DNA of 64,000 nucleotides from Candidatus Nomurabacteria bacterium (lineage in GTDB: Bacteria > Patescibacteriota > Patescibacteriia > HK-STAS-PATE-3): NCBI GenBank assembly GCA_023898465.1, contig CP060223.1, positions 96,001 to 160,000 on the forward strand. Reading direction: 5' to 3'. Shown piece by piece: positions 1 to 40,140 of the stretch. Numbering within the stretch: position 1 is the stretch's first letter; each line of letters begins with the position of its first letter. The notes under the pieces were generated by a model. The model was not told where the DNA came from, did not search any database, and worked only from the letters and a program-made list of their open reading frames with translations. Position numbers and translations under genes: made by a program.

Positions 1-728
1 TACTACGCCGCAAAGGCGTGGTCAGCATCGTGGTGTTATTGGCTCTGGCGATGAGCTACGGCGTGCTCTTAACTCAACCTTTTCTTTATCAGGCACGTGT
101 GGAGCTGCTTATTATTCAGCAGCAGTCAGAGAATCAAGATTTACTCTCTGCACTTCGCGCCACTGAACAGGTTGGTAAAGGCTTAGTTGATGTTATTAGC
201 ACCAGTTCATTCTTTGATAAGGTGCTGGCAACCGACTTTCCAATTACTGATGATTTCGGCACAAATCCGGAAGAGCGTCGCTTAGCTTGGCAAAAAACTG
301 CCCATGCATCTATTTCTCAGCAATCTGGAATCTTAACAGTCACCGTGCTGCACAAGAATAAAGAGCAGGCAGCGGTGATTGCCCGCGGCGTGGCGCAAGT
401 ACTTACCACCGAGAGTCAAGAGTTTCACGGTAAGGCAAATATCATTGTGAAGGTAGTAGATGATGTCTATACCAAGCAATGGCCTGTGCAACCAAACATT
501 CTTGGTACTACCGTAGCCGCGCTTTTCTTTGGCATCATTGCCGGTGTTGGAATTGTCGCCCTCCTTCCTTTGCCAAAAGCAAAAGAAGCCGCGCCAGCAA
601 TTCGTCGTACTGAAAATGATATGAGTGGAGCAGCGCCAAGTGCGCGAAAGACTTTGCATGAAATACGTATGAAGTCGACTCCGCCTCCGAGCCTACCGGG
701 CATCGATGAAGAGGAAGACGATCTCTAA
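1..728 (+). CDS. Polysaccharide chain-length determinant (Wzz/PCP-like) membrane protein, 5'-partial
   Basis: The reading frame is open to the window edge (frame 3), and the listed start at 18 is GTG. Two hydrophobic segments (VVSIVVLLALAMSYGVLL near the N-terminus, TTVAALFFGIIAGVGIVALL near the C-terminus) flank a soluble domain, as in Wzz-type proteins. The call rests on architecture only. Confidence 0.45.
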   Translation, partial: LRRKGVVSIVVLLALAMSYGVLLTQPFLYQARVELLIIQQQSENQDLLSALRATEQVGKGLVDVISTSSFFDKVLATDFPITDDFGTNPEERRLAWQKTAHASISQQSGILTVTVLHKNKEQAAVIARGVAQVLTTESQEFHGKANIIVKVVDDVYTKQWPVQPNILGTTVAALFFGIIAGVGIVALLPLPKAKEAAPAIRRTENDMSGAAPSARKTLHEIRMKSTPPPSLPGIDEEEDDL

Positions 729-746
729 CACGTCGTGCATTCTCAA

Positions 747-768
747 GGGATGGAAGAGCTTCCATCCC
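747..768 (+). terminator. Hairpin after the Wzz-like ORF (no T-run)
   Basis: A perfect 9-bp stem GGGATGGAA/TTCCATCCC with a 4-nt loop starts 19 nt after the stop codon. There is no U-tract, so terminator function is uncertain. It coincides with the left edge of the GC-rich island. Confidence 0.3.
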
Positions 769-861
769 GGAATGAGTGCGAGACCCGTACTCTGAACGTT
801 GACAATTGAACGTATCAGGACTGGTTCCTGCATACGACGAGATAAACTTGGAGGTTTCCGT

Positions 862-2085
862 ATGCGCTGTTTGACCATGGCGTTGTGCCTTTGGCTCATC
901 TTCGTGGCCAATGCGGCGCATGCAGGTGAGTATCAGAATCTCCGACCCGGTCCGCCGGTGTTGGAGCTGGGTGCGTTTTTCGCATCAACCTTTCCCGAAG
1001 CTCTACCACAGCTGCCAGCTGGCACGGTGGTAGCACACTTCCCGTGTCCGGTGCCGGCGACATTCGTGTTTGCCGATCGGAGTCTCCGCACCTACTCACT
1101 TCCGAGTGAGGCAAAGGTGGTGGCGACGGAGCTGCGTCGGGACGATGGTGGAGCGTACTACCAGTTGCTCTATCTCCTCTCGAATAAGCAGGCGAGCTAC
1201 GCGGAGCGATTCGCGTATCCGATCTGGCTGAATAGCGATCCGGTCTACGTCCCCAACAACACCAAACTCTTGGTATTGGAACGTGGTCCCGAGCAAGCGA
1301 CGGTTGTCACTTCTGCTCCTGTGACTGCGACACCGCAGCAGCAGGGTGAAGCGATCAAGACGACGCCGGTGGTGAGAAACACGCCCGTGTCCTCTGCGCC
1401 ATCGACTGGACGGGTTGAGGGTGAGCACATCATCCATCACCCCTTCATTCGCGGGCAGCTTGATTTGAGGACGGAGTTCCTCGGTGTGAAACCCGAGAAC
1501 ATCTTCACTCATCAAGTGATTCCATCGCTTTGGCTGAACCAACACCTTGGTTTGACCGGACGTTGGGAGCGGCACGAAGCGAAGGATCTCGATCCATCGC
1601 AGGGCTGGGGAGTCGGGCTCTGTTACCGGACAGCTCCTATACATCGATTGTCGGTCGAGTACGCTCGATTGACATTTGGTGAGATGAGTTCGTCCGGGCA
1701 AAGCATTCAGCTCGTGCATTTCGAATCCAGGCTACAAACCTGGTTCCTGCATCACGAGTTGGAAGCAGAGCAGCGGGATAACGACGCGAAGGAAGTTTGG
1801 ACTCGACTACGGTCGGGGCTTGCTTTCCAAGTCGGCTATCGTAGCCGGCTGCAGATGGGCGGAGAGTTAGCTAACCTGAACTACGAACTCGTAGCACAGG
1901 ACGGCTACTACTACGTGTCTGCACTTGGGACGCGCTTCAATCGATCTCACTACGGAGCATTTGCCAGCTTGGATACCCATCTGGGTGATCACTTCCCACT
2001 ACGACTTCTGGTCGGCGGCGGGAAGGGCAGTGTTCCAGAATGGAACTACATCAATGCCGAGCTGAGACTCGGAGTTGATTTCTGA
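862..2085 (+). CDS. Exported protein with C-terminal beta-barrel-like domain ending in Phe (barrel paralog 1)
   Basis: I moved the start to ATG 862 (GGAGG 7 nt upstream), which gives the signal peptide MRCLTMALCLWLIFVANAAHA. An N-terminal domain of about 150 aa is followed by a T/P/S-rich linker and about 220 aa ending ...LLVGGGKGSVPEWNYINAELRLGVDF. It is homologous to 4011..5207. Confidence 0.7.
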   Translation: MRCLTMALCLWLIFVANAAHAGEYQNLRPGPPVLELGAFFASTFPEALPQLPAGTVVAHFPCPVPATFVFADRSLRTYSLPSEAKVVATELRRDDGGAYYQLLYLLSNKQASYAERFAYPIWLNSDPVYVPNNTKLLVLERGPEQATVVTSAPVTATPQQQGEAIKTTPVVRNTPVSSAPSTGRVEGEHIIHHPFIRGQLDLRTEFLGVKPENIFTHQVIPSLWLNQHLGLTGRWERHEAKDLDPSQGWGVGLCYRTAPIHRLSVEYARLTFGEMSSSGQSIQLVHFESRLQTWFLHHELEAEQRDNDAKEVWTRLRSGLAFQVGYRSRLQMGGELANLNYELVAQDGYYYVSALGTRFNRSHYGAFASLDTHLGDHFPLRLLVGGGKGSVPEWNYINAELRLGVDF

Positions 2086-2335
2086 TGTACGAATCCTGGC
2101 CACTTGGTCAGTACTCATAACTCGTCGGGTGGTCAGGAGATCCGTAAGGATTTCTACAAAAGGACCTAAGGGTCCGCGACCTGTGCCGAACGCACACGGA
2201 GGACAACATGCGAAAGCGTGCTCCGCCGACTATCTGATGAGCTTGTGTAACTGACCATGCCCCAATCAACTTGTTTGGGGCTAGGGATTAACCTGCCCCG
2301 ACAACAAAAAATTGGGGCAAGCCAAGGAGGAAGCC

Positions 2336-3625
2336 TTGTTCAAGCTTCGCATCAGCGCGATCTTCGCGCTTCTCATCCTTCTGGGTGCCGGTCTCTATGG
2401 CTGCGCTCAGGAGCCCATCGTGTTCCAGCCCGATCAGGATGTGCCGACCGATCAGCTGCCGGGCGATGGCACAGCCACGCTCAGTCTGCAGATCGGCGGC
2501 GTACCGGCCCAGCACAATGGAGGCGCTTCGAGTGCTTTCATGGTGACCAATACGGTGCAGGTGATCGGCAACATCTTCCTCACCGGTGACCGACTGGACA
2601 CCGAGTGGAAGATGCAGAACTGGAGCAGCGGCGATGTCCAAATCCAGACCATGAACGGTCGTTGGTATTCGGTCGCTCCTTCGGTCGACGGCAACGTCCA
2701 GATCACCAACTTCCTCATCAACGACATCCAGCCGCAGCATTTCGTGCAGCTGGATGAGATGAAGGGGATCTTCGCCCAGGTCAAGCTGTTGCCGGATTCG
2801 TCTGGCTTCCAGTTGTATCAGCTCGAAGACAACCGGGATCAGCTGATGACGGTGCACTACCGAGTCTACGATCCTGCCCCGGCTGACTTCCAGGGACTCC
2901 AGATCGTGGGAACTTCCACGAACTGGAATCAGATGTATCCGGAGGCGATCTACAGCTCCGACTACGGTATCTGGGAGTGGTGGGGTCCGGCGTTGAAGGC
3001 GAGCGGCAACAAGGTCGCTTTCCGGATTCGCGGAAGTGGGGCTCTGCCGACCTCGTATTTGATCACTGCCCAAGGCGAAGTGAACGGTACGCCGGTTGGT
3101 GAAGAGGTCCAGCTCGACTGTACGGAGTTGGTGGAGAACGTGAATACGTACTTCGCCAGCACGACCTGGTTCACCGACCGCGGTTGGTTGGCTGGGAAGC
3201 GAGTCTACCGACTCATCATCCACGAAGATGGTGGTATCGAACAGGGATGCGGAGGCATCCCGATTCAGACGACCATCTCGATCACGAACAACCGCATTCC
3301 GCAGGATCACCACCTGATGTGTGTCTACGACGGCTACAACGACAATCAGCCGTTCGAGATTCCTCGGGTGAGCGGCAAGTGGGAAACCACGCAGATCACG
3401 CTCCATTCTGGTCCGGCGGCTCTGTCGGTCTGGGATACGAGTGACGGAGACAAGCCGATCATCACCACGGTGAAGATCGGCAGCCAGGAAGTGAAGCACC
3501 TCGAAGTGTTTCAGGATCCTGGTTCGGAGCCGACGGTTCACTTCACCTTCGTCCTTGGCGAGGGTCCGACCCTGCAACAGGGGACGGACAATCGCACTGG
3601 TACGATCGGAGGAGAGAACTACTAA
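2336..3625 (+). CDS. Lipoprotein, unknown family (lipoprotein paralog 1)
   Basis: The ORF-track start is TTG 2312. The in-frame TTG at 2336 has AAGGAGG (2324-2330) 5 nt upstream and gives FKLRISAIFALLILLGAGLYG|C (lipobox L-Y-G-C). The segment LQIVGTSTNWNQMYPE...FRIRG loosely recalls E-set/CBM-type glycan-binding domains (unverified). The C-terminus ...QGTDNRTGTIGGENY resembles that of 5222..6385. Confidence 0.7.
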   Translation: MFKLRISAIFALLILLGAGLYGCAQEPIVFQPDQDVPTDQLPGDGTATLSLQIGGVPAQHNGGASSAFMVTNTVQVIGNIFLTGDRLDTEWKMQNWSSGDVQIQTMNGRWYSVAPSVDGNVQITNFLINDIQPQHFVQLDEMKGIFAQVKLLPDSSGFQLYQLEDNRDQLMTVHYRVYDPAPADFQGLQIVGTSTNWNQMYPEAIYSSDYGIWEWWGPALKASGNKVAFRIRGSGALPTSYLITAQGEVNGTPVGEEVQLDCTELVENVNTYFASTTWFTDRGWLAGKRVYRLIIHEDGGIEQGCGGIPIQTTISITNNRIPQDHHLMCVYDGYNDNQPFEIPRVSGKWETTQITLHSGPAALSVWDTSDGDKPIITTVKIGSQEVKHLEVFQDPGSEPTVHFTFVLGEGPTLQQGTDNRTGTIGGENY

Positions 3626-3662
3626 TCGCCAGCCCTGGGAACGCTGACGATTGCACATTCTT

Positions 3663-3712
3663 GCCCCGCCCGCTACAACACTTTGTGTTGAAGCGCGGCG
3701 GGGCTTTCTTTT
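3663..3712 (+). terminator. Rho-independent terminator (island junction 1)
   Basis: The GC stem GCCCCGCCCGCT ... AGCGCGGCGGGGC is followed by TTTCTTTT. Confidence 0.8.
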
Positions 3713-3781
3713 ACCTTGGCAGGATGGAAATGTAACTAGTCTTCAAGTTCTGATGTTTGTTGAAGCAATGTTTCGTAGGGC

Positions 3782-3811
3782 TTGACAAAATAGCACTTTT
3801 CCTGCTAAAGT
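3782..3811 (+). promoter_or_regulatory. Sigma70-like promoter (TTGACA-18-TAAAGT)
   Basis: cTTGACAAAATAGCAC... lies 70 nt after the terminator. It has the same cTTGACAAAAT opening as the promoter at 7944. Confidence 0.5.
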
Positions 3812-4010
3812 TCGCCGTTAACCAATGCGTAAAACCATCTAAAAAACGAACATTTTTACCACAACGACCTTAGTCGTTTGTGCTACTTATGGACATGAAT
3901 GGCTTGAGAAATGCCTAGCATTCCTCAACCGATTCTGGACCGGAAGTACTGCAGTAATTGTCATTCTTTGACAATTGAATTCAGAAGTCATTCTCACAGA
4001 GGAGGGTCTC

Positions 4011-5207
4011 ATGCGGACCTGGTATGTGGTTCTTGCGCTACTGGCGCTCGTCTCCTTTGGGTCCGCTCGGGCCCAGGTCATCGAAATCCCGATCGACTAC
4101 GTCGCGACGGATTCGGTGATTGCGAACTGGCCGCATCTCAACATCGGGGGCAACCCGGTGTACAAGAGCGGCTACCCGGCTGATTCCTTGGCAGTACATG
4201 CTGCTCGGGACGGCTGGTTCAAGACGACCTTCAACTTTCCCGTCGGGATCTACTGTCTCGATAAGGATGGGAAGATCATCAAGGGACGTGTCGAACCCGG
4301 ACAAACCATGAAGAATGGTGCCCGGGCCGATACGCTGATCGTGTCTATTCTAGCTGAGACGCCGGAGCAGACGCTGTATCAGATCCACGTTATTCAGGCG
4401 TGCGGTAACCCCGTGCTCTGGTCAGGCGTCGGTGTGTTGAAAGCACCGAAGCCGACTGGCCCACTGCCGCCGCCAACCCTGACTGTTCCGAAGCCCCCAG
4501 CACCACCTCCCATTGCGGAGACGGAGCCGCCGATCGTAGTAGAGCCTGAAAAACACTTCAGGCTACCGATCGATGGTTGGGCTGGAGTGGCAGGAAGTAA
4601 GTCACTCGAGTCCAAGGCTTGGTCGCTCTTCGAGGGCGTCTACATCGACTTTCCGTTGATCGTGGACAAGCTCACGTTCAAGTTTGGGGCGGCAACGTCT
4701 CAGGCAAACTACGAGAAGCTCCGTGGTCGGACGAGTTACCGAGGTGTTGGCGGCGATATGAGTCGCTGGCAAGTCGGCCTCTTCTACCGGCCTTGGGACA
4801 ACATCCAGGTTACCGGCCTGATTGGTCAGCAGTATGACCATAAGGCTGGCGACTGGCAGGATGGCGTCCAGCTGGAAGGAGTGCTGGGTTTCCCCATCGG
4901 TCGCTGGTGGAACGATGAGGATGTCAGCTACGGCACTACGACCAAAGCACTTTGGTTCCGCACTCGACATGCCTACAAGCTGTCGGGTGAAGGAATGCAT
5001 TGGTGGTCGATCGGCGGCGAGTTTGTCTATGACTCGTTCATGGACAACGATGGTCGATTCTACACTTCGCGCGTTCACGTATTTGGGAAGCGAGAGTTTC
5101 CCGGATTCTGGAATCGCGAGGCTGTCTTCATCTTCGGTGGCGGAAGAGGGAGTAAAGACGAGGCTTGGGGCCTCATAGCAGAACTAGGGCAGCGGCTCTG
5201 GTTCTAG
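4011..5207 (+). CDS. Exported protein with C-terminal beta-barrel-like domain ending in Phe (barrel paralog 2)
   Basis: ATG 4011 follows AGGAGG. The signal peptide is MRTWYVVLALLALVSFGSARA. A Pro-rich linker (PKPTGPLPPPTLTVPKPPAPPP) precedes a C-terminus ending ...FIFGGGRGSKDEAWGLIAELGQRLWF, which aligns with the C-terminus of 862..2085. Confidence 0.7.
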   Translation: MRTWYVVLALLALVSFGSARAQVIEIPIDYVATDSVIANWPHLNIGGNPVYKSGYPADSLAVHAARDGWFKTTFNFPVGIYCLDKDGKIIKGRVEPGQTMKNGARADTLIVSILAETPEQTLYQIHVIQACGNPVLWSGVGVLKAPKPTGPLPPPTLTVPKPPAPPPIAETEPPIVVEPEKHFRLPIDGWAGVAGSKSLESKAWSLFEGVYIDFPLIVDKLTFKFGAATSQANYEKLRGRTSYRGVGGDMSRWQVGLFYRPWDNIQVTGLIGQQYDHKAGDWQDGVQLEGVLGFPIGRWWNDEDVSYGTTTKALWFRTRHAYKLSGEGMHWWSIGGEFVYDSFMDNDGRFYTSRVHVFGKREFPGFWNREAVFIFGGGRGSKDEAWGLIAELGQRLWF

Positions 5208-5221
5208 AAGGGAGATTCCTG

Positions 5222-6385
5222 ATGCGTTTTCTCCGTTTCATGGCCGCTGCGCTGTTGCTGCTCGGTGCCTTCGGGTGCCAGAAGCTCCCCAGCGAGCCGA
5301 TCGACACCGGTGGCAGTCAGCCGCCGCAGGAGTACAACGGACCTGAGTCTGGTCTCGCGCTCAACTTCGAGCGTGGCGCCGGACAATACGAATTCGTTTC
5401 CGACATGTTCATCCATCAGGGTGGCGTGACGGATTGGGCGACTGTAACAGTCAACCCGGATAACTTCTTCCTCACCACCTACGCTGGACACTGGTATAGC
5501 GACATGCTGACCAGGGACGGTGTGCCGGTGCTGGGAGACTACACTCTGGCCGGTTCGACTCCGTCCAACTACTGGATGGATGAGAACCGCGGTGTTTTCG
5601 CGAGCCACATGGTTCTCGTCAGCGACGCTGACAGTGCCTGGGTCTGGCAGTGGCCCTCCAATGCCAGCCAGTTGGTCGACCTCGACATCGAGGTGCTCAA
5701 CTGGTCATCGGCAACGGATCTTGGCGTGGTCGGTACGCCGACGTGTTACGTCGTGCACCCGGCCATGTTGAACCACTTGCATGACAACGTCTACGGACGC
5801 TCGCTACGCCTCCTGCCCGGTGATGCCAAAATCGCTGTGATGGATATGTACGAGCGAGTTGGTCTGGGTGATGCAGTCACGGTCCGTATCAACGGCACCG
5901 AGCTGGTCGCCTACGTCGATGACTTCACGCATGACAACCAGCCGACGGTACATCGTTACTTCCGCTTTCACGTGAACGCGGATGGGACGGTGAGCTCGAT
6001 CGGTACTGAGAACCGATTCTCGTATGGGAACACGGTCTCGGTCAGCAATTCCAATATCGATCCCAGCGCTACGGTGTATCTCAACGGCACAGGCCTCACC
6101 AACGGTGAGATGATGCCGATGACCTATGTCGGCAGCTGGACCTGGCAGCTCACCGGTCTCACGACCTGGGTGGGCGAGCAGGATTTGAGGGTGAGTATGG
6201 AAGACGGGACTGGTGTGTTTCGTACCGTTCGCTTGAACGGAACGGAGTTGCACCACCTGGCTGCCGTGCCGCTCGACCCGGATCCTCCGATCCAGGTCTT
6301 CCGATGCACGCCCATGCATGACCACACGGTGATGCAGGGCGAGGACAACCGGGCCGCTGACATCGGCATGGAGACCGGCGGATGA
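5222..6385 (+). CDS. Lipoprotein, unknown family (lipoprotein paralog 2)
   Basis: ATG 5222 has GGGAG upstream. The signal is MRFLRFMAAALLLLGAFG|C (lipobox). The C-terminus ...MQGEDNRAADIGMETGG resembles that of 2336..3625. Confidence 0.7.
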   Translation: MRFLRFMAAALLLLGAFGCQKLPSEPIDTGGSQPPQEYNGPESGLALNFERGAGQYEFVSDMFIHQGGVTDWATVTVNPDNFFLTTYAGHWYSDMLTRDGVPVLGDYTLAGSTPSNYWMDENRGVFASHMVLVSDADSAWVWQWPSNASQLVDLDIEVLNWSSATDLGVVGTPTCYVVHPAMLNHLHDNVYGRSLRLLPGDAKIAVMDMYERVGLGDAVTVRINGTELVAYVDDFTHDNQPTVHRYFRFHVNADGTVSSIGTENRFSYGNTVSVSNSNIDPSATVYLNGTGLTNGEMMPMTYVGSWTWQLTGLTTWVGEQDLRVSMEDGTGVFRTVRLNGTELHHLAAVPLDPDPPIQVFRCTPMHDHTVMQGEDNRAADIGMETGG

Positions 6386-7869
6386 GCGAAGAAGGTGATG
6401 CGACAAGTCGTGAGGTGCCTCCCCAAGTAAGAGAGGTACTTCGCCAAATGCAACGAGTCGCGAAGAGAGATCGCAAAAAGAAGGCGAAGCATCGAGCCCG
6501 CAGAGAGGAACGGAAAAAACAGGCAAAGGCAAGAGTGAAAGCTCGAACGGGTGAGCAGTCAACAGGTTCTCCAAGGAAAGGAGATGAACCTCGTCGTCCT
6601 GTTCCGCCGCCTCAGCCTGCACCAAGTGCTTCGCCGTCCTACGCATCTCTACTGGGAGATAAGCTTGGGGGAATTCCTCAAGTAAGACGAAATCCGAAGA
6701 GAGCAGAAACAAACCTGGGAGGCTCGCCGAGCTTCCCCCAAGATGAGGAGGGTCATGTAATGCCCGAGGTGTCCATGCGCGAAGAAGGAGGATCGAGGAA
6801 GCTTTTGATTGCCACTGTGGCGATCTTGTGCGTCCTCTTGGTCGGGGTGCTGATCTACACGCATCCCTGGAGTCCTCAGCAAGGTCTGACGGAGACCGAG
6901 GTGTCGGATATGATCAGGGAGTTCGCTGATCAGATGCCGGCTCCGGTCGCTGAAATCCCCGATGACGTGGTACGCAAGGGTGACCTTGCTTCGATGCAGC
7001 CGGCGGCGATCACTCTCAGCGCTTTCGACGAGACCTATCTCGATACGCTGTGGGCGACGGTCAAGGATCCGGTGACCGGGAAGATCGACTCGACGATGGT
7101 CGTGAAGACCCGGACGAGGAATCCCATCACTGATTTGCAGAAGGACGTGAAGAGTACCAATGCCGAGGCTCGTGCAGCCAAGGTTGCGGCACGGAATGCG
7201 GAGAAGCGTCTCAAGGAGACGCCGACCCAATTCGCCGTGACCGTGCCTTCGACTTCCACATCGACTTCGCTTCACCAGCCTGGTGGAGTGCAGTTGGGTG
7301 GTACCACGACCACGACGGCGCCTGTGCAGATGACGACTCGAACGAGTACGCAAGCCGGGCTGGTGGCTGGTACGATCGGAGGTGGTTCGCCGCCCCCGCC
7401 GCCGGCTAGCAACGTCGCTGTGTCCATGACTACCACGATGGTTCCGGCCGGTGAACAGGTGATGGGTGGGGACGGCTTGATGAAGCAGGGTCCGGCCGTT
7501 GCCTTTGTCTACAACGGTCAGACCTACGTTCGTCGGGATCTGGTGCAGCGCAACAAGTACGGCGACCCGATCAACCCCAGTCGAGCTGACCAGAACTTCT
7601 ACGTGATGGCCGGCGAGCAGGGGATGAACTGGAAGCTCGTCAATCCGGCCAAGCAGAAGATGACGGTCCAGGGCGACTATTTGGTCTGGCCTGGCGTGAT
7701 CAAAGGTCCTTTCCAGGTCGGCTGGGTGGATCCGAACGACCCGGCCTACATGCCTGAAAGTGGCGTAGTCTGGGCTCCGATCGCTGAGTTCTACTCCGGC
7801 TACGACGGGACCTTCTGTCGTGACCCCGACTATCAGTTGAGGGCTGTGGCGATCCAGCAGATGCCGTAG
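6382..7869 (+). CDS. Single-pass membrane protein with highly basic N-terminus and C-terminal domain shared with 8047..9225
   Basis: The ATG overlaps the upstream stop (ATGA). The N-terminal ~130 aa are Lys/Arg/Pro-rich (KKKAKHRARREERKKQAKARVKAR). There is one TM segment, LLIATVAILCVLLVGVLIY. A conserved C-terminal domain spans 7465-7866. Confidence 0.65.
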   Translation: MSEEGDATSREVPPQVREVLRQMQRVAKRDRKKKAKHRARREERKKQAKARVKARTGEQSTGSPRKGDEPRRPVPPPQPAPSASPSYASLLGDKLGGIPQVRRNPKRAETNLGGSPSFPQDEEGHVMPEVSMREEGGSRKLLIATVAILCVLLVGVLIYTHPWSPQQGLTETEVSDMIREFADQMPAPVAEIPDDVVRKGDLASMQPAAITLSAFDETYLDTLWATVKDPVTGKIDSTMVVKTRTRNPITDLQKDVKSTNAEARAAKVAARNAEKRLKETPTQFAVTVPSTSTSTSLHQPGGVQLGGTTTTTAPVQMTTRTSTQAGLVAGTIGGGSPPPPPASNVAVSMTTTMVPAGEQVMGGDGLMKQGPAVAFVYNGQTYVRRDLVQRNKYGDPINPSRADQNFYVMAGEQGMNWKLVNPAKQKMTVQGDYLVWPGVIKGPFQVGWVDPNDPAYMPESGVVWAPIAEFYSGYDGTFCRDPDYQLRAVAIQQMP

Positions 7870-7897
7870 TCCGCGACTGCAACGTTCTTTACTTCAA

Positions 7898-7936
7898 CCC
7901 CCGCTATATCTACGGATGTAGCGGGGCTTTCTTTTT
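7898..7936 (+). terminator. Rho-independent terminator (island junction 2)
   Basis: The stem CCCCCGCTA ... TAGCGGGG is followed by CTTTCTTTTT. Confidence 0.8.
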
Positions 7937-7943
7937 ACTATGC

Positions 7944-7972
7944 TTGACAAAATGCCAAAAATAGCATACTAT
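7944..7972 (+). promoter_or_regulatory. Sigma70-like promoter (TTGACA-17-TACTAT)
   Basis: cTTGACAAAATGCC... sits immediately after the terminator. Confidence 0.55.
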
Positions 7973-8046
7973 AGCCGGTTCTTTTTGCACCTCACAATCT
8001 AGTTACACAAGCGAGAGACACTACACATCCCAACCGGGAGGACTAC

Positions 8047-9225
8047 ATGCTCCAACGTTTCTTTGCGTGGTCTTTGCTGGCGCTCTTCGCCTTCGGCTGT
8101 GCCGGAGGTAGTGCCACGCTGAAGCAGCATCAGCAGCCCGTCGGGCAGGTCTACGTGGGCGACTGCGTGCCGTCGGATGGCATTCATCCGACTGGCTACC
8201 TTCGCCTGACCAAGCCGCCGGAGGACTTCAACTCGATGCTGTCGATGTGGCACGCTGTTCAGGCCGAGGGTTCATCCGAGCCCTCGAAGATCGAGGTCGA
8301 CTACATCCGGGTCTACGCCCACGTAGCCGGCCGCGATTCACTGCTCGACAGCGACGAGTACAACGACATGATCGGGGACGGAGGTCTCTATCTTCGTCAT
8401 CCCTCGTGGTTCTACAACGATGACCATACGAGTCTGCCCTGCGAGTTCGACATGGTCAACGGTTACTTGGTCTTGCGACCGAGCGACTACCCGGATCGAG
8501 TCTTTCACTGGTGGAATTCCTACCATCCAGCGGAGGATGTCTGGCGTGTCACTATTCCGGCCGGTGCTACCAACTGCTGGGCAGAGACTCGGATTCGGAT
8601 TACGGGTCCAGCCTATGTCCAGGGCGGCATTGACTACTGGCGTTCACTCACTGCTCCGTACGGCGGCGTCGAAGTGAACAACCGGGAAGCCTGCATGTCC
8701 AACTGGACTTGCTCGGCTGATCCGGGTTGGCAGACCATCGTGGTTGGTAAGGACAAGCCGCAGGGCGACAGCGCTGTGGTCGATGCCGATGAGAACGGGA
8801 AACCGAAAGTCGTCCAGGCTCCGGTCTACGATCCTTTCGAGAGCAAGGCCGACGGTCTCCTCAAGAAAGGCGCTGCTGTCTGTTTTGTACAAGACGGACG
8901 CACCTACTTCCCGAAGGAGATCGTGGCGACGAACAAGTACAGCGATCCGGCTCGCCCCAAGAATGGCAAGTACTACTTGCTGGGCGGGGTGAAGCCATGG
9001 GCTATCGCCGGCGACGATCAAGAGCTCCGGGAAAACGGGGATTACCTCTACTATCCCGGCGTGGTCGACAAGGTGTGTCAGGTGGGCTGGGAGGATCCGG
9101 CCGACGCTTCGGCCGATCCGTCCGGAACCGTATGGAGCGCTTCAGCGGAACTTTTCTCGGGTCGCCCGGGATCAGTTTCGAAGAACGGTCAGTACGGCTA
9201 CCTGCCAGTCAATCTCTCCAACTAG
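8047..9225 (+). CDS. Lipoprotein with jelly-roll-like N-domain and shared C-terminal domain
   Basis: ATG 8047 has GGGAGG 5 nt upstream. The signal is MLQRFFAWSLLALFAFG|C (lipobox). ...IEVDYIRVY... recalls lectin/GH16-type jelly rolls (unverified). The C-terminal domain at 8848-9222 is homologous to 7465-7866. Confidence 0.7.
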   Translation: MLQRFFAWSLLALFAFGCAGGSATLKQHQQPVGQVYVGDCVPSDGIHPTGYLRLTKPPEDFNSMLSMWHAVQAEGSSEPSKIEVDYIRVYAHVAGRDSLLDSDEYNDMIGDGGLYLRHPSWFYNDDHTSLPCEFDMVNGYLVLRPSDYPDRVFHWWNSYHPAEDVWRVTIPAGATNCWAETRIRITGPAYVQGGIDYWRSLTAPYGGVEVNNREACMSNWTCSADPGWQTIVVGKDKPQGDSAVVDADENGKPKVVQAPVYDPFESKADGLLKKGAAVCFVQDGRTYFPKEIVATNKYSDPARPKNGKYYLLGGVKPWAIAGDDQELRENGDYLYYPGVVDKVCQVGWEDPADASADPSGTVWSASAELFSGRPGSVSKNGQYGYLPVNLSN

Positions 9226-9240
9226 GAGAAGGTGATTCAC

Positions 9241-9274
9241 CCCGGTGCATGCAATGCGTGCGCCGGGTTTTCTT
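9241..9274 (+). terminator. Rho-independent terminator (island right edge)
   Basis: The stem CCCGGTGCATGC / GCGTGCGCCGGG (with G-U pairs) is followed by TTTTCTT. Confidence 0.7.
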
Positions 9275-9275
9275 A

Positions 9276-9304
9276 TTGACCATGGGCAATATTTTTGCTA
9301 TAGT
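9276..9304 (+). promoter_or_regulatory. Sigma70-like promoter (TTGACC-17-TATAGT)
   Basis: The promoter directly abuts the terminator and lies 30 nt upstream of ATG 9335. Confidence 0.55.
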
Positions 9305-9334
9305 CGCCTGTTCACTTTCTTTTACTGAGTTGTA

Positions 9335-11107
9335 ATGTTACGCAATATTCTTGTCATTCTCGGACTCGCCATTTCACTCACCAGCTTCACGCCAAAGCAG
9401 GAGAGTCGCGATGGCGTGTATGCGTTTACCACGCCTCCTTTAAGTATTGGTCAAGGAGTGGTGGTGACAAATGATGGCATTGTGATTGGCGATGGCGTGA
9501 CTGATTCCCGGCAAGGAATACAGGAGCTGCTTAGTGGTGATGACTTGGAACATTTTCTTGACCAAAGCTCTCAGCAGTTTGATGCCGTAGAGCTGCGTAT
9601 CTGGACATGGTTCCTGGGTCAAAACGATTTTACTATTGGCACGGTGAATAATTTCCTTGCCCGTGCTCATGCCCACGGCTTGCAAGTGTACTTAAATACT
9701 TGGGAATATCCTGGCACACATCCCGACCTTCTGCCTGCTGAGTATCAGGCATATAAACTTGCTGACACCGGACAACGCGTGCCGGCCCTAGTGAATGATG
9801 GACAAATCAGCGCGCAGCACATTGATAAAGCAAACCCCGCTGCACTGGAATGGATGAGTGGGCAACTGCGGAGTGCGCTGACTTCTTTTGACGTTTTCGA
9901 TGGATACCTCATTGTTGAGGATAGGGTTTCCGATTGGGTGCATGGGTCTTTCCCACAGTATGTACGTTATTGGGATTCACCGACCTATTCCGATGCAGCG
10001 CTTGATTCATTTCAACATTATCTCCTACTGCATGGTCAGGATGCAACACAGCGATTCCCAGTGGATCGTCCGGAGTTAGTTTCTCAATTCACCCAGTATG
10101 TTCCTTCAGCCCCAGAAAGTGCTTTATGGAAGTATTGGTATCAATGGCGCTTTGAACTTTTTGCTGACTATGTGGAGAGTCTGAGTAATGCGGTGAAGTC
10201 AGTGCAAAGGGTGCCAGTGCTTTACATGCCTTGGCAACGTGTGGTGGATGAATTTGATTACGCCTACGCTGATGATTGGTCAGCCAATCGTTGGGATGTT
10301 GGATACGGTCCGGGCAATCCCGAGAATGCCATCTTCGGCGTCTCGCTTCACACCCTGGCAAAACGCGGATCAATTGATGCCTACGTGCATGAATTTGGAG
10401 AGGATGGTACGCATGAGCTCTGGCCAATGTCTTTTAATGCGCTGCAGTTAGAAAAAGCCAAAATTGCTTTGTCAGATTCTTATGTTACCCTAGGCAGCTT
10501 TATTCAATTTTTTAATTACGAAGGTAGAGAAATAGTTTCCCCTGAACTACTTCAAGATGCCTTAGCCATCGGACGGCAAAACGAGGCAAAGATTTTTGTA
10601 GCTTACGATGTTGCCACACTGTATGATCGTTCAGGTCGCTATGATGCACATACCTCAGCGCTTTGGCAGCAAGCAAGAACACATGCATATGCCATTGATG
10701 AAGAGGAAATCCGAAACGCAAGTCAGCTAGCGCCAGCGCAGGTTTTTGCTCGAAAATTACCTGAACAGATTCCAGAAGGAGTGGCCGCCTGGACTGCCGA
10801 TGATGGGTATGTGTATGTGCGGACCGAGGCTCTGCCCGGTAACGGACCATACTATGTCGTATACGATCACTGGAATGCACCACTACTTGATGCGCAGCAC
10901 CTTATGGAATACTATCCAGAGCATGGTTTAGTCGCTATACATGCTGATGGGTTAAAAGGCGCTGCTTTTCAAATCATTACTCCGGGACCGCAGGGTAGCG
11001 TCGCGTGGTCAGAAATTCGTGAACAGCTTTGTGAGCTGGGGTATCAAGGGATCGTATGTAGCCCAAATAGTTGGCTTTATCAACCAGTGGGGCTTCATTC
11101 CATGTAG
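9335..11107 (+). CDS. Exported or anchored 590-aa protein, family not recognised
   Basis: This is a long ORF in host-like composition. The N-terminus is hydrophobic (MLRNILVILGLAISLTS). It is possibly glycosidase-like, but I could not verify that. Confidence 0.6.
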   Translation: MLRNILVILGLAISLTSFTPKQESRDGVYAFTTPPLSIGQGVVVTNDGIVIGDGVTDSRQGIQELLSGDDLEHFLDQSSQQFDAVELRIWTWFLGQNDFTIGTVNNFLARAHAHGLQVYLNTWEYPGTHPDLLPAEYQAYKLADTGQRVPALVNDGQISAQHIDKANPAALEWMSGQLRSALTSFDVFDGYLIVEDRVSDWVHGSFPQYVRYWDSPTYSDAALDSFQHYLLLHGQDATQRFPVDRPELVSQFTQYVPSAPESALWKYWYQWRFELFADYVESLSNAVKSVQRVPVLYMPWQRVVDEFDYAYADDWSANRWDVGYGPGNPENAIFGVSLHTLAKRGSIDAYVHEFGEDGTHELWPMSFNALQLEKAKIALSDSYVTLGSFIQFFNYEGREIVSPELLQDALAIGRQNEAKIFVAYDVATLYDRSGRYDAHTSALWQQARTHAYAIDEEEIRNASQLAPAQVFARKLPEQIPEGVAAWTADDGYVYVRTEALPGNGPYYVVYDHWNAPLLDAQHLMEYYPEHGLVAIHADGLKGAAFQIITPGPQGSVAWSEIREQLCELGYQGIVCSPNSWLYQPVGLHSM

Positions 11108-11135: not shown

Positions 11136-11600
11136 ATGCAGTGGAGGTTGTGGATCTACGTGTTGGCTTGCGTACTGTGCGCATCGCAGTCTGCGTACGG
11201 TCAGTCTGAGCAATTCCAGCCAATGTACAGCATAGCGCCAGAGTATCCACTTTCAGCGTGGATTGCTGGTGAGTCTGGGTCGGTGATGGTGGGAATGCAG
11301 ATTGACCCGGTCGGCCGTGTGGAGGAGGTCTGGGTTCAGTCTTCAACAAGCTCGTTGTTTGAGCGGTATGCGCTCGAGGCGGCGAAGCAGTGGGTTTTTG
11401 TACCGATCATGCCCATGGTGGATCTGATCGACGCGGTGGATGGCGTTATGGTCTTGCGTAGAATTCCGGAGCTTGAAACAGCGAGTTACCTGGAAACACA
11501 TCCGGGAATCATTGACAGTCTCGTCTACGAGTGGACGGAAAAACAGGACCAACCGTCCCCGGTCCGTAGCGTCAGTATCCCTTTCAATTTCAACCACTAA
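11136..11600 (+). CDS. TonB C-terminal-domain-like exported protein
   Basis: I moved the start to ATG 11136 (AGAGGAGGAG upstream). The signal peptide is MQWRLWIYVLACVLCASQSAYG. PEYPLSAWIAGESGSVMVGMQIDPVGRVEEVWVQSSTSSLFERYALEAAKQWVFVP matches the TonB_C pattern (P.YP..A...G.eG.V.v.f.id..G.v......SS....ld.aAl.A...w.F.P). Confidence 0.6.
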   Translation: MQWRLWIYVLACVLCASQSAYGQSEQFQPMYSIAPEYPLSAWIAGESGSVMVGMQIDPVGRVEEVWVQSSTSSLFERYALEAAKQWVFVPIMPMVDLIDAVDGVMVLRRIPELETASYLETHPGIIDSLVYEWTEKQDQPSPVRSVSIPFNFNH

Positions 11601-11634
11601 GTACGAGCCGCTTATCCTCTGGGTAGGCGGCTTT

Positions 11635-12792: not shown

Positions 12793-12867
12793 TGGCTCCG
12801 GGGACAGGGATCGAACCTGCGACCAAGTGGTTAACAGCCACCTGCTCTACCACTGAGCTACCCCGGA
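12793..12867 (-). tRNA. tRNA-Asn(GTT)
   Basis: Read on the minus strand: TCCGGGGTAGCTCAGTGGTAGAGCAGGTGGCTGTTAACCACTTGGTCGCAGGTTCGATCCCTGTCCCCGGAGCCA. It forms a full cloverleaf with anticodon loop CTGTTAA and an encoded CCA. Confidence 0.95.
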
Positions 12868-13347: not shown

Positions 13348-14580
13348 CTAGTAATCTTTGAGTTTACGCATGCCTTCATGTGACTGGATTTTTTCCAGTG
13401 CCTTAGCTTCAATCTGTCGGATACGCTCACGGGTCACGCCAAATTCCTGACCCACTTCCTCCAGGGTATGTGCGACACCGTCAGTTAGTCCGAAACGCAT
13501 CTCCAGGATTTTTTGCTCGCGAGGTTGTAGCTCGCGAATGATTTGCTGCACGTGATCTTTCAGTAGTTGCATCGCTGCAACACGATCCGGCGAAACCGAT
13601 TTCACATCTTCAATGAAATCGCCCAGGGTTGAGTCTTCGTCACCTTCACCCACGGAAGTTTCCAAGGAGACAGTGTCTTGGCTGATTTTGATGATTTGGT
13701 GAATTTTCTCAACCGGTTCACCCATTTCCGCGGCGATTTCTTCTGGCAGTGGTTCACGACCCAGATCTTGGATAAGCTGCCGTTCAATCTGCTGGAATTT
13801 ATTAATCGTTTCAACCATGTGTACCGGGATGCGGATAGTTCTTGATTGATCAGCGAGAGCGCGAGTAATGGCTTGGCGAATCCACCAAGTAGCATAGGTA
13901 GAGAATTTATATCCTTTACGATAATCGAATTTCTCTACTGCGCGGAAGAGTCCAATGTTACCCTCCTGAATGAGGTCAAGCAGAGAAAGTGATCGACCAG
14001 TAAACTTCTTCGCAATGGACACGACGAGACGTAGGTTTGCTTCAACCAAGCGACGGTGCGCTTCTTGCTCACCTCGTTCTTTACGTTTTGCTAAAGCCAC
14101 CTCTTCTTCAGTGGTTAACAAAGGCACCTTGCCGATTTCTCGAAGGTACATCTGGATAGAGTCGTTGGAGATATCACCCAGGTCGAAGTGTCGTTCCTCA
14201 GTGCTGAGGCCAATTTTTTCTCGAATGCTGGATTGATCGTCGTTGAGATTGAGAATGCTTTCTCCAGTTTCCACCACACTGATGCCTTGCATCTCGAAGC
14301 GATCAAGGAGCGTATCGTAGTAGTCCAGATACTCTTCTAATTCAGGTAGGGCAAAAAGAATCTCCGTTTCAGTTACAAAACCGCGAATACGTCCCTTGTG
14401 CACAAGCTGGTCTACTGCTGCAGCATCTGGTTCAATCGGCGCCTTAGCTTTTGCGCGTGGCTTCGTAGTGGTCTTTGCTTTGCCTGTAGTTTTTTTCTTT
14501 GCTACCGCTTTTGTGCTCTTTACTTTTTTTGTTTTTTTTACACTTTTGGTCGACTTCTTGGCAGGAGACTTTTTCTTCAT
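13348..14580 (-). CDS. rpoD: RNA polymerase sigma factor RpoD (sigma70) with Lys-rich N-terminal tail
   Basis: [21 protein letters not shown] and [23 protein letters not shown] are region 2-4 signatures. The gene lies downstream of dnaG. Confidence 0.95.
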
Positions 14581-29774: not shown

Positions 29775-30596
29775 AAGACCAGCTTATTACTTTTGAAGAC
29801 TTCTCGCGTGTAATGATTATGTTTACTGAGCGCGAGACTTGTTCCAGGTTTTACCAGATGCGACTGGATCCACAGAAGAAGAAAGAATTCTATAAGATTC
29901 TTTTAATACCTAAAATGGAAGAATCCGGAAATATTAAAATATTCGGCATGGATTGGCTGAAATTTGCACGATCTTTTAATTTTCACTTGCAGGGGCTGGG
30001 TGTGATGTTATTTTACAATCAAAAACTCATAAAGATAAACGATTGAATATTGATTTTTATCTCCATCAATTCTTTTTAACATTAAACATTCATTAGAGTT
30101 GTTTGTAAAAATGACAATGGAGATATTAGATCAAAAAGTTAAAAGACAACACAATACATTAAGCAATTTAATAATAGTCGAAGGTGTTATAAGGAAGTTG
30201 GATAATATCGTTTGTAGATATTTGGCTTCAAAGCAGACTAAGTAAATCAAAAGGTAAGTATGATACGTATTATCTAGACACATGGAGGAACGGATGGAGG
30301 GAAATTCGAGTGATGGTGGAGTACTACAGCAATTTAAACTTTTGAAAGATCGTGGACTTTCTCAAAAATTATTAAAAGATACTGAGAACACCTTATTTCG
30401 ATATCCTGATTCCAGCATGATAAAGAAGTTGAAGTATAATGAGGTTTTTGCAAAAATTAATATTCTTGACGTTAAAAACTTTAAGAAAGACGTTAATAAT
30501 TCCGGAACACTATTTACAGATCTTTTTCTCATACTTTTATTTTTTCGATACGAGATAGTCGAAGGTGTTGATTAGAGAGTTATTATATAAATATGT
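29660..30596. other. AT-rich 937-bp segment inserted between the Nudix repeats
   Basis: The composition drops abruptly to strongly AT-rich. The segment is bounded exactly by the two repeat copies. No terminal inverted repeats or recombinase gene were seen. Confidence 0.6.
30282..30575 (+). CDS. Hypothetical 97-aa ORF inside the AT-rich insert
   Basis: An uninterrupted ORF in very AT-rich DNA is unusual in itself. GGAGGA precedes the second in-frame ATG (30294). I recognise no family. Confidence 0.3.
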   Translation: MEERMEGNSSDGGVLQQFKLLKDRGLSQKLLKDTENTLFRYPDSSMIKKLKYNEVFAKINILDVKNFKKDVNNSGTLFTDLFLILLFFRYEIVEGVD

Positions 30597-31110
30597 ATGC
30601 AACATGAACTACTCGATATTATCAACGAAAGGACGAAATGTCAGGCCAAACAACTCGGCAAGAGTTGTATGATAAGGAGCCTTACTTGTCGTATCGTGCA
30701 TGTGTTTGTGCAAAATAGCCAAGGCCAGTTTGCCATTCAGAAACGCAGTGAAGTGGTGAGAGCTTTCTCCCGGGCCACTGGAGCTCCTCGGCCAGTGGAC
30801 AGTCAAAAAGGCGAGTCATATGACGATGCGGCTGCACGTGGAGTGCAAGAAAGAGCTAGGCATTGAAGCACCTTTAGAAAATGCCTTAACAACTTGGTAC
30901 ACCGTGCCAGATCGAGATATTCGTCGTCGTATTGGTGTTTATCTTGCCAAGCACGAGGGACCATTTGAGCTTGAGGCAATTGAAGTGGCCGAAGTTGTTT
31001 GGCATAAGCCCGAAGAAGTCTTAGCAATGGCTAAGAAAGGTGAGCCATTCCAACCAGAATTTCTCGACATGTTTAAGCTTGTTATTGAGAGGGACACCAA
31101 TGAAAATTAA
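30597..31110 (+). pseudogene. Nudix hydrolase copy 2, frameshifted 5' half with native 3' end
   Basis: It is the same gene as 29196. It carries several indels relative to copy 1 (for example aagggcctt versus aaggagcctt, and ggacatgtcaaaaaagg versus ggacagtcaaaaagg) that destroy the Nudix box. From ELGIEAP onward the frame is intact through the native end ...FLDMFKLVIERDTNEN. Confidence 0.8.
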
Positions 31111-40078: not shown

Positions 40079-40140
40079 TTCTAGACAGGATCCATCAGAA
40101 CACTTAGTATGCACTAGGAGAACTTTCTTATTGCAGTCGT

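Follow-up and report, generated by a model that had tools for sequence, protein, structure and literature searches.

We analyzed a window of 64 kb (the whole stretch of DNA under study, whose coordinates are used throughout) from the metagenome-assembled genome (MAG) of "Candidatus Nomurabacteria bacterium" (1,082,586 bp; Patescibacteria group, Parcubacteria group). A GC-rich block of six genes, which we call A to F, occupies positions 862-9225. These are functional envelope genes, clustered together and confined to one small clade of Patescibacteria, and the block is not a newly inserted island. The explanation that we favor as a whole, with a probability of around 60%, is that of a clade-specific module kept in a fixed chromosomal slot, which would play a trans-envelope role and would owe its codon signature to the exchange of alleles. 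An earlier note on this DNA had read the block as a self-contained island acquired by horizontal transfer, which in this simple form is not supported by the conserved position of the cluster, by the restriction of its families to the clade and by a codon signature that is common to the clade. The Patescibacteria, or candidate phyla radiation (CPR), represent a large share of bacterial diversity, and their envelopes and contacts with hosts are mostly obscure. They are treated as monoderms that lost the outer membrane (OM). The cluster unites new protein families in an envelope module that is conserved within the clade, is specific to it and includes a predicted OM-type barrel; it provides a concrete gene set for testing this assumption.

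The GC-rich block and its position in related genomes

The G+C content of the block is 56-60%, against approximately 46% in the backbone, that is, the window outside it. In 1-kb windows, values of 0.57-0.59 were found over 1001-9000, except for 0.53 in 3001-4000, which holds an AT-rich spacer, whereas the other 55 kb gave 0.37-0.51, typically 0.45-0.48. At a resolution of 200 nt, G+C climbs at around 800-900 and drops at around 9200-9300, with dips inside the block at the B-C spacer (0.39 in 3700-3900) and at the E-F spacer (0.48 in 7900-8100). The contrast sits at third codon positions, whose G+C (GC3) ranges from 0.61 to 0.76 over the six genes and from 0.33 to 0.51 over 33 genes of the backbone, while the first and second positions (GC1, GC2) differ slightly. 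Codons ending in A are strongly avoided (A3 of 0.09-0.12), G3 and C3 are raised equally, and the relative synonymous codon usage (RSCU) of the block gives r = -0.02 with its own backbone. The strand-symmetric tetranucleotide L1 distance between block and backbone is 0.45, when 4-kb windows of the backbone differ from the backbone mean mostly by 0.13-0.20, and by up to 0.25. The abrupt change in composition reported in the earlier note is therefore borne out by sliding-window G+C, GC3, tetranucleotides and RSCU alike; composition along the window is not uniform, and the block is atypical.

Six plus-strand open reading frames (ORFs) fill the block, the long antisense ORFs being the usual by-product of GC-rich coding. 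The starts of four genes were corrected by means of independent gene calls and comparison with relatives. Genes A to E and the flanking gene G correspond to USN53622-USN53626 and USN53628, each annotated as "hypothetical protein". The genes of the block and its flanks are:

1-728, plus strand: 3' part of a gene for a Wzz/CpsC-like polysaccharide co-polymerase, left flank; 254 amino acids (aa) in full, beginning upstream of the window; GC3 0.44
862-2085, plus strand: gene A (USN53622), 407 aa; signal peptide, N-domain of ~180 aa and C-terminal putative barrel domain of ~210 aa, ending in AELRLGVDF
2336-3625, plus strand: gene B (USN53623; 437 aa from 2312 at NCBI), 429 aa; lipoprotein, paralogue of D; GC3 0.76
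4011-5207, plus strand: gene C, 398 aa; signal peptide, N-domain (nt 4128-4439), Pro-rich linker and predicted barrel (nt 4572-5201), ending in ELGQRLWF
5222-6385, plus strand: gene D (USN53625), 387 aa; lipoprotein (AFGC lipobox), paralogue of B; GC3 0.74-0.75
6760-7869, plus strand: gene E (USN53626), 369 aa; N-terminal transmembrane (TM) anchor, charged Thr/Pro-rich linker and C-domain of ~130 aa (nt 7444-7866)
8047-9225, plus strand: gene F, 392 aa; lipoprotein with N-domain (residues ~51-231, nt 8197-8739) and C-domain (nt 8812-9222)
9335-11107, plus strand: gene G (USN53628), right flank, 590 aa; secreted, without known family; GC3 0.42

Comparison with L016, a sister strain with around 90% identity, gave ratios of nonsynonymous to synonymous substitution rates (dN/dS) of 0.08 for C, 0.11 for D, 0.05 for F and 0.35 for E, at dS of 0.20-0.56. 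These ratios support that the block genes are functional and under purifying selection.

The order of genes is: pilin-like gene, Wzz-like gene, A to F, G, a gene for a TonB_C protein, genes for proteins of 65 and 129 aa, and a flavodoxin gene. The pilin-like gene (~195-196 aa) lies just upstream of the window, at 1326-1916 of contig L001, and encodes an N-terminal hydrophobic helix followed by C-terminal Ca-binding TSP3-type repeats (DxDNDGxxD). It precedes the Wzz-like gene in every case (L001, L004, L010, L013 and L014) and is the best conserved gene locally, with 60-67% identity among the closer relatives; a metagenome scan with its protein returned a single 1.7-kb contig only. The Wzz-like protein matches TIGR01006 (E 5.6e-8) and, less well, GNVR (E 0.005), neither match reaching its curated cut-off, and its orthologues, encoded directly before the cluster, show 51-55% identity in L004, L010 and L013, and 38% in L014. 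On the other side, orthologues of G follow the cluster in L012 and L013 (38-40% identity), L013 adding a lipoprotein paralogue of G, and L014 has a relative with 27% identity. The related loci contain:

L004, G+C 0.57: pilin-like TSP3 gene (65% identity), Wzz-like gene (51%) and orthologues of A to F in the same order (26-47%)
L010, from groundwater, G+C 0.58: the same eight genes as L004
L013, G+C 0.53: pilin-like, Wzz-like, A, B, C, D, G-paralogue lipoprotein, G, PHP, 66 aa, 129 aa, flavodoxin
L012, G+C 0.58: A, B, C, D, E-like, 161 aa, DUF4832 protein, G, 129 aa, flavodoxin
L016, G+C 0.57 over the cluster, ~90%-identical sister strain: C, D, E, F and the start of G
L014, distant, G+C 0.45: pilin-like (34%), Wzz (38%), a three-gene module, Wzy_C, MurJ/MatE flippase, GT4, G-like, GHL15, GT4

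The L014 module encodes a C-type barrel, a lipoprotein of 285 aa that ends in CGGDNRLGET and matches weakly the B/D profile, and a TM-anchored protein of 336 aa with an E-like layout. Thus, the cluster was neither absent nor displaced in these relatives: slot and order are the same in L004, L010, L012, L013 and L016, and the core is present in L014. Overall, the cluster or its core is found in at least five other lineages directly after the pilin-like and Wzz-like genes, and the adjacency of barrel and lipoprotein genes holds in all lineages. No homologues of A to E were detected outside this clade in a profile search of 1.84e9 representatives or in other protein searches. Judging from gene order, a small clade of Patescibacteria keeps the cluster at one fixed place in the chromosome, between orthologous flanks, and the minimal conserved core of the cluster, as read from L014, is the set of putative barrel, lipoprotein and anchored protein (C-D-E in the window). 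The presence or absence of the block in relatives, which the earlier note had left to be checked, speaks against its reading, the genes being syntenic though unannotated.

An assembly chimera or a contamination, in which a GC-rich fragment was joined into the MAG, would produce an abrupt change in composition, but it is hardly credible. Contigs from three sequencing runs, assembled independently from short reads (Logan), are 100% identical to the window; the right junction is crossed by two of these contigs and both junctions by one of 20.5 kb, which begins 1.95 kb upstream of the window. In addition, the sister strain has the same F-G junction, and relatives show synteny of the cluster with its left and right flanks. 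The earlier note was then right in taking the island as real rather than as an artefact of assembly, as no sign of a chimera was found at either junction. The backbone genes (GroEL, PEP synthase, RpoD, DnaG, LeuRS, M23/LysM peptidase) fit a small CPR genome. The recent acquisition of a self-contained island from an unrelated GC-rich (diderm) donor, as that note proposed, appears very improbable to us. At least five other lineages of Patescibacteria type have kept the same position and gene order, and nothing supports a donor from another phylum, because the family was not found outside the clade (14 hits among 1.84e9 representatives). Such a donor would account for diderm-typical features, namely the OM-type barrels, the lipoproteins and the nearby GC-rich TonB_C gene, and the N-domain of F has a 43%-identical relative in a Competibacter MAG of 64.5% GC; however, this N-domain is the only part that occurs elsewhere, and there as a single gene, A to E being without homologues outside the clade. 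The block resembles a classical genomic island in its abrupt shift of G+C, GC3 and tetranucleotides over 8.4 kb with accessory surface proteins, and differs from it in having no integrase, edge tRNA or direct repeats, and in lying at the same site in all relatives found. No recombinase was found among the ORFs of the block, no att-like or direct repeats around it, and no tRNA at its edges. As tblastn of C and F against plasmids, a scan of viral contigs with the E/F C-terminal domain and a comparison of the six proteins with PHROGs all gave no match, and mobility genes are lacking, an origin from a phage or a plasmid was rejected.

Origin of the codon signature

The GC3 of the cluster is 0.61-0.84 in every lineage, and that of the flanks is mostly 0.33-0.49 in low-GC genomes and 0.55-0.75 in GC-rich relatives. 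The close relatives sampled are all GC-rich over their whole loci (flank GC3 of 0.55-0.84), and a replacement by the allele of one of them would account for the window. In L014, an independent low-GC genome, the module has a GC3 of 0.62-0.68, against 0.41-0.49 in the adjoining pilin-like, Wzz, Wzy, flippase and glycosyltransferase (GT) genes. The GC-rich genomes also show an excess of cluster over flank GC3, of approximately +0.03 in L004, +0.08 in L010, +0.12 in L013 and +0.16 in L012. The RSCU of the window cluster correlates with that of the relatives' clusters with r of 0.90, and with that of their flanks with r of 0.72, while for the L014 module the values are 0.73 with the window cluster and 0.20 with its own flanks. 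In L016, the cluster has a GC3 of 0.65-0.76 beside a low-GC fragment of G and, because this sister strain shows the same GC3, the GC-rich state is older than the split between both strains (dS 0.2-0.56). Taken together, the contrast in L014, the excess over the flanks, the match in RSCU and the state of L016 support, at the level of codon usage, that the GC3-rich signature belongs to the module across the clade and is not the scar of one recent insertion.

We propose that related lineages, most of them GC-rich, would have exchanged alleles of the module repeatedly by homologous recombination, perhaps with a further contribution of GC-biased conversion, and that the resulting signature would be visible as an "island" in low-GC genomes only. 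Such exchange, or else a bias specific to the locus, is preferred here to a single acquisition. Identities between L012 and L013 are 61% in B and in G, and 38-42% in C and D, and C and D of L012 group with those of the window and L010 (42-47%); by these figures, the A-B and C-D modules have different histories. A "GC island" can thus be a persistent property of a locus across a clade and not a scar of recent transfer, which matters for composition-based island callers, and the locus could be a tractable case for the study of allele exchange or GC-biased conversion in reduced genomes.

Two other origins were weighed against recurrent exchange. In the first one, which we consider unlikely, a low-GC ancestor of the window strain and L016 would have swapped its cluster in a single xenologous replacement, through recombination in the conserved flanks, for the allele of a GC-rich, unsampled relative, which would now be ameliorating. 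The sharp boundaries at the ends of the cluster, between orthologous flanks of native composition, are what such an event would leave, codons are used much as in the GC-rich relatives (r 0.72-0.90), and the GC3 of the window cluster (~0.70) is slightly under that of the relatives (~0.75), as partial amelioration predicts. On the contrary, the same contrast appears independently in the distant low-GC L014, the GC3 of the cluster is above that of its flanks even where the whole genome is GC-rich (+0.03 to +0.16), the RSCU of the window cluster is nearer to that of the relatives' clusters than to that of their flanks, and no close donor exists among the sampled lineages, with identities of 26-47%. 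Strictly vertical inheritance combined with a locus-specific force on synonymous sites, such as codon or mRNA selection on very highly expressed envelope genes, seems to us quite improbable. Ordinary translational selection is weighed against by the highly expressed or secreted genes of the backbone, which show no such bias (GC3 of 0.45 in GroEL, 0.46 in RpoD, 0.42 in G and 0.40 in a surface protein of 2046 aa); moreover, the equal rise of G3 and C3 looks mutational or donor-type and not like specific preferred codons, and the histories of the A-B and C-D modules are incongruent. What speaks for selection is that the GC3 of the cluster is nearly constant while that of the flanks spans 0.43 to 0.69, that a common RSCU signature with avoidance of A-ending codons (A3 of 0.09-0.12) is found, and that the state persists over dS of 0.2-0.56.

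The exchange of alleles has its own weak points. The G+C of the spacers (0.45-0.54 in the cluster, 0.45-0.61 in the relatives and 0.44 in intergenic backbone) does not separate exchange from an intrinsic bias. The third-position differences between the window and L016 are unpolarized and symmetric by construction, in which amelioration and equilibrium are inseparable. Finally, the other pairwise identities form a star-like pattern, which points to no particular lineage as the donor.

Predicted proteins and a possible trans-envelope role

The six proteins gave only noise against Pfam and NCBIfam at E<=1, and so did sequence and profile searches of the PDB with the F family, the B/D family (with 4 and 10 sequences), the E/F C-domain and G. 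This agrees with the statement of the earlier note that the families are unrecognized, since no Pfam, NCBIfam, PHROG or PDB sequence match beyond noise was found. A word-index search of 5.8 billion proteins returned one homologue of A, just its own 98%-identical variant for B, and 11 homologues of F, and a HMMER search with a profile of the A/C C-terminal domain against 1.84 billion cluster representatives returned 14 proteins at E<=1e-3. A and C belong to the same family over their C-terminal ~210 residues. B and D are related (BLASTP E 1e-9), with a 10-sequence alignment that spans both subfamilies, and E and F (BLASTP E 1e-20) have in common a C-terminal domain of ~130 aa. All six products are exported or anchored, as that note had also stated, with signal peptides in A and C, lipoboxes in B, D and F, and a single TM anchor in E. 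The lipobox of B (LYGC) is atypical, its orthologues carrying VGC or AGC, and the window also encodes LspA (signal peptidase II).

The structure of C was modeled with AlphaFold2 from a 14-sequence family alignment, a 3-sequence alignment having given an unusable pLDDT of 34. The model, with a mean pLDDT of 78.7, consists of an alpha+beta N-domain (residues 40-143, pLDDT 84-92), a disordered Pro-rich linker (residues 144-187) and twelve long antiparallel strands (residues 188-397, pLDDT ~90), and a Foldseek search of the PDB with it likewise points to a barrel. The C-terminal ~210 residues of C are predicted from this model to form a 12-stranded OM-type beta-barrel and, by homology, the C-terminal domain of A would be the same barrel. 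Aromatic residues (11-18%) and Gly (8-14%) are abundant in this domain, which has an amphipathic beta periodicity, and the last residue is F or W in 11 of the 14 family members. Sec signal peptide and C-terminal aromatic beta-signal are both present in the A/C family, and the end of C (ELGQRLWF) fits, in our reading of the motif, zeta-x-G-x-x-Phi-x-Omega. The barrel is probably the functional core, because some members, of 239-242 aa, consist of the barrel alone. The concentration of OM-style features in the block pointed out in the earlier note stands as regards the lipoproteins B, D and F and the predicted barrels with a terminal aromatic residue, the barrel model being that of C alone.

All the B/D members end in a conserved extreme C-terminal QGxDN motif, which in B is QGxDNRxxxIG. 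CBM_48 scored 20.5 and 15.7 bits on an equivalent segment of two B orthologues, below the cut-off of 22.4; the B and D proteins of the window gave no CBM_48 hit, and hhalign of B/D against the CBM_48-bearing protein of the window was negative. E resembles TonB only in its overall layout of anchor, long Thr/Pro/charged linker and C-terminal domain, and differs from it in lacking TonB_C homology: no TonB_C hit was obtained in E or F, and hhalign of the E/F C-domain against the neighboring TonB_C protein gave a probability of 0.05%. A metagenome scan with the E/F C-domain gave no match. The N-domain of F is found sporadically outside the clade, each time as an isolated extracellular domain: in a protein of Planctomycete type that has a dockerin, in the Competibacter MAG (43% identity, 64.5% GC), in an Ignavibacteriales MAG and, as we read the alignment, in proteins that apparently have a T9SS-like C-terminal tail. 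In a scan of genome contigs with a 4-sequence F alignment, just two isolated relatives of the N-domain were found (Competibacter and Ignavibacteriales), the source genome not being among the matches.

The predicted barrel was compared with known systems. C has a C-terminal 12-stranded barrel, according to its model, like type Va autotransporters (BrkA 3qq2, Hbp 3aeh, AIDA-I 4mee, NalP 1uyo, EspP); nevertheless, A and C have no PF03797 match (Pfam at E<=1, and at E<=10 for five barrel domains, which gave no match at all), their N-domain of ~110-180 aa is missing in some members and is not a large passenger, the model of C has the disordered Pro-rich linker 144-187 in place of a pore helix, and the host of the block is not a known diderm. 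KdgM/NanC porins (4pr7, 8xua, 2wjr; PF06178) are like the model of C in being 12-stranded monomeric barrels of ~210 residues, whereas A and C have no sequence match to them, carry extra N-domains and are always paired with a lipoprotein gene. Slam proteins (DUF560), from Neisseria and other Proteobacteria, have a 14-stranded barrel and a TPR N-domain, and are encoded beside their surface-lipoprotein substrate. The block shares with them a soluble N-domain followed by a C-terminal barrel whose gene adjoins a lipoprotein gene, pairs of barrel and lipoprotein that are paralogous and diversify in step (A with B, C with D) and lipoproteins with a conserved C-terminal motif; it differs in the absence of DUF560 hits, in the 12 strands of the C model and in its alpha+beta N-domain, and a display of B and D on the cell surface would be speculative. 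Polysaccharides that depend on Wzx/Wzy are exported through the OM by Wza/OPX proteins or by composite translocons of OPX and a beta-barrel of 16-18 strands. The block has no OPX (Poly_export) domain, its predicted barrel has 12 strands, and the flanking Wzz-like protein resembles the Gram-positive CpsC type.

With these elements, we infer a trans-envelope surface module linked to polysaccharide machinery, in agreement with the cell-surface system suggested in the earlier note, which is supported by the exported and membrane proteins, the predicted barrel and the lipoproteins. The barrel would sit within an outer lipid layer, with a cognate lipoprotein as its partner, B and D each being encoded directly after their "own" barrel (A-B and C-D pairs), and E may link the pair to the cytoplasmic membrane, its flexible linker carrying the 130-aa C-domain. 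The module would work with the neighboring polysaccharide machinery of Wzz/Wzy/Wzx type in the export, anchoring or binding of a surface glycan, or in contact with a host. This link is suggested because the cluster always follows a Wzz-type gene and the L014 core sits between Wzz and Wzy/Wzx/GT genes, and also by the GHL15 and DUF4832 neighbors, the weak CBM_48 signal and the lectin-like distribution of the F N-domain. Alternative working models would be KdgM-like oligosaccharide porins, Slam-like lipoprotein translocons or an autotransporter-like display of the N-domain.

Several points count against this role. The barrel of A comes from homology to C, and the roles of partner and connector come from gene order and sequence architecture only. 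The polysaccharide link comes from neighborhood, with Wzz in all lineages and Wzy, Wzx and GT in L014 only, and the CBM_48 hits are under threshold. Furthermore, the prevailing view is that Patescibacteria have no outer membrane (PMC10160955; PMC12102498; PMC8871954), and neither the window nor ~200 kb of related loci showed any Bam, Lol or lipopolysaccharide (LPS) genes, which makes it hard to see where a barrel would be inserted. As some Patescibacteria parasitize diderm hosts (bioRxiv 10.1101/2024.03.08.584096), insertion into the membrane of the host is possible. Full-text searches of the literature gave no report of OM-type barrels in CPR. That the clade makes genuine OM-type barrels, paired with lipoproteins and connected by an anchored protein, either in an outer lipid layer of its own or inserted into the OM of a Gram-negative host, is a tentative idea that we find doubtful. 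If true, a second lipid layer of their own would make these cells diderm or "toga-like" CPR, at odds with the current idea of an outer membrane lost in CPR, while insertion in the host would make the barrels of an epibiont a conduit for attachment or nutrients in a Gram-negative outer membrane. Either way, they would be new protein families, with a barrel assembly perhaps independent of BAM.

Transcription signals, gene starts and other features of the window

The following non-coding features were located in the block and at its edges:

747-768, plus strand: perfect 10-bp inverted repeat GGGATGGAAG/CTTCCATCCC, directly after the Wzz-like stop and without T-run, read from the sequence
799-810 (63 nt upstream of A) and 3968-3979 (43 nt upstream of C), plus strand: identical copies of the 12-mer TTGACAATTGAA
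3664-3712, plus strand: terminator-like imperfect GC hairpin followed by CTTTCTTTT, after B
3782-3811, plus strand: promoter-like site TTGACA-18 nt-TAAAGT, with TG, in the B-C spacer; 10/12 positions match
6386-6759, plus strand: A-rich variable spacer of 374 nt, open in frame with E (ATG 6382), which would encode a Lys/Arg-rich peptide
7899-7935, plus strand: intrinsic-terminator-like hairpin and T-run, after E
7944-7972, plus strand: promoter-like site TTGACA-17 nt-TACTAT, before F
9241-9277, plus strand: terminator-like hairpin (9241-9267; 12 bp, 9 GC) followed by TTTTCTTATT, at the right edge of the block
9276-9304, plus strand: TTGACA-type promoter-like site, before G

The edge hairpin (747-768) and the edge terminator (9241-9274) described in the earlier note are both present. 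Its ordinary TTGACA-type promoters stand in part, with strong matches before C, F and G, as the overall count of promoter-like matches in the region (11) is not above that of shuffled sequences (7.8 +/- 3.0). Given the terminator-like hairpins after B, E and F and the promoter-like sites before C, F and G, these signals suggest three transcription units: A-B, C-D-E and F. The AT-rich B-C spacer has a G+C of 0.45, and a direct repeat (D11) makes 3698-3712 equal to 7921-7935, the tails of the terminators after B and E. The 12-mer TTGACAATTGAA has just two matches in the 64 kb, even allowing one mismatch, and the copy before C is kept in L016; no good -10 box was found 17 nt past it. It could be a shared promoter or operator of the putative barrel genes A and C.

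Concerning gene starts, A (GC3 0.61-0.63) has a GGAGG 7 nt upstream of ATG 862, and TTG 799 was rejected as its start, being part of a TTGACA box. Gene E most likely runs from 6760 to 7869, because the spacer 6386-6759, the most divergent segment against L016, is only ~64-66% identical to it at the nucleotide level, with indels, when most windows of the flanking genes are ~90-95% identical. The start of E also lies downstream of this spacer in the NCBI annotation, in the call on Logan contig L002 and in L016, and the L004 orthologue opens at the TM anchor; a version of 495 aa from 6382 was rejected on the divergence of the spacer and on these downstream starts.

Downstream of G, the TonB_C protein (11136-11600, plus strand; 154 aa) is exported and matches TonB_C with E 3e-11. 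Its gene has a GC3 of 0.63-0.65, although the preceding G has the composition of the backbone, and a terminator-like hairpin lies at 11605-11633. Such a C-domain is unexpected in an organism presumed to be a monoderm. Between G and the 129-aa gene, the window has TonB_C, L013 has an AT-rich PHP gene and L012 has no gene; on this comparison the slot looks like a variable insertion point. A tRNA gene follows on the minus strand (12796-12867), and Logan contigs L001 and L002 both stop inside it, at 12848, which suggests a break point due to a repeat or to strain variation.

Other observations concern the rest of the window. RpoD (13348-14580, minus strand) has an N-terminal tail of ~50 residues, rich in Lys and Ala, with a histone-like look. 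The lowest-GC kilobase, 30001-31000 (0.365), is largely intergenic, and 29775-31039 (G+C 0.37) has no ORF of 150 aa or more. Tandem paralogues of 350 and 346 aa with nearly identical N-termini (39026-41181, plus strand) lie where the coding sequence of the window is most AT-rich (G+C 0.39-0.42), and the first one has a weak hit to DIT1_PvcA, an isonitrile/dityrosine synthase-like family. LeuRS (50614-54198, plus strand; 1194 aa) carries an alpha/beta-hydrolase domain (residues ~250-450; Abhydrolase_1, Ser_hydrolase) inside its catalytic core. Finally, 56887-63896 (plus strand) encodes a bacterial TSP3-repeat protein of 290 aa followed by a secreted protein of 2046 aa with a CBM_4_9 domain, which may be a giant surface protein, with the composition of the backbone.

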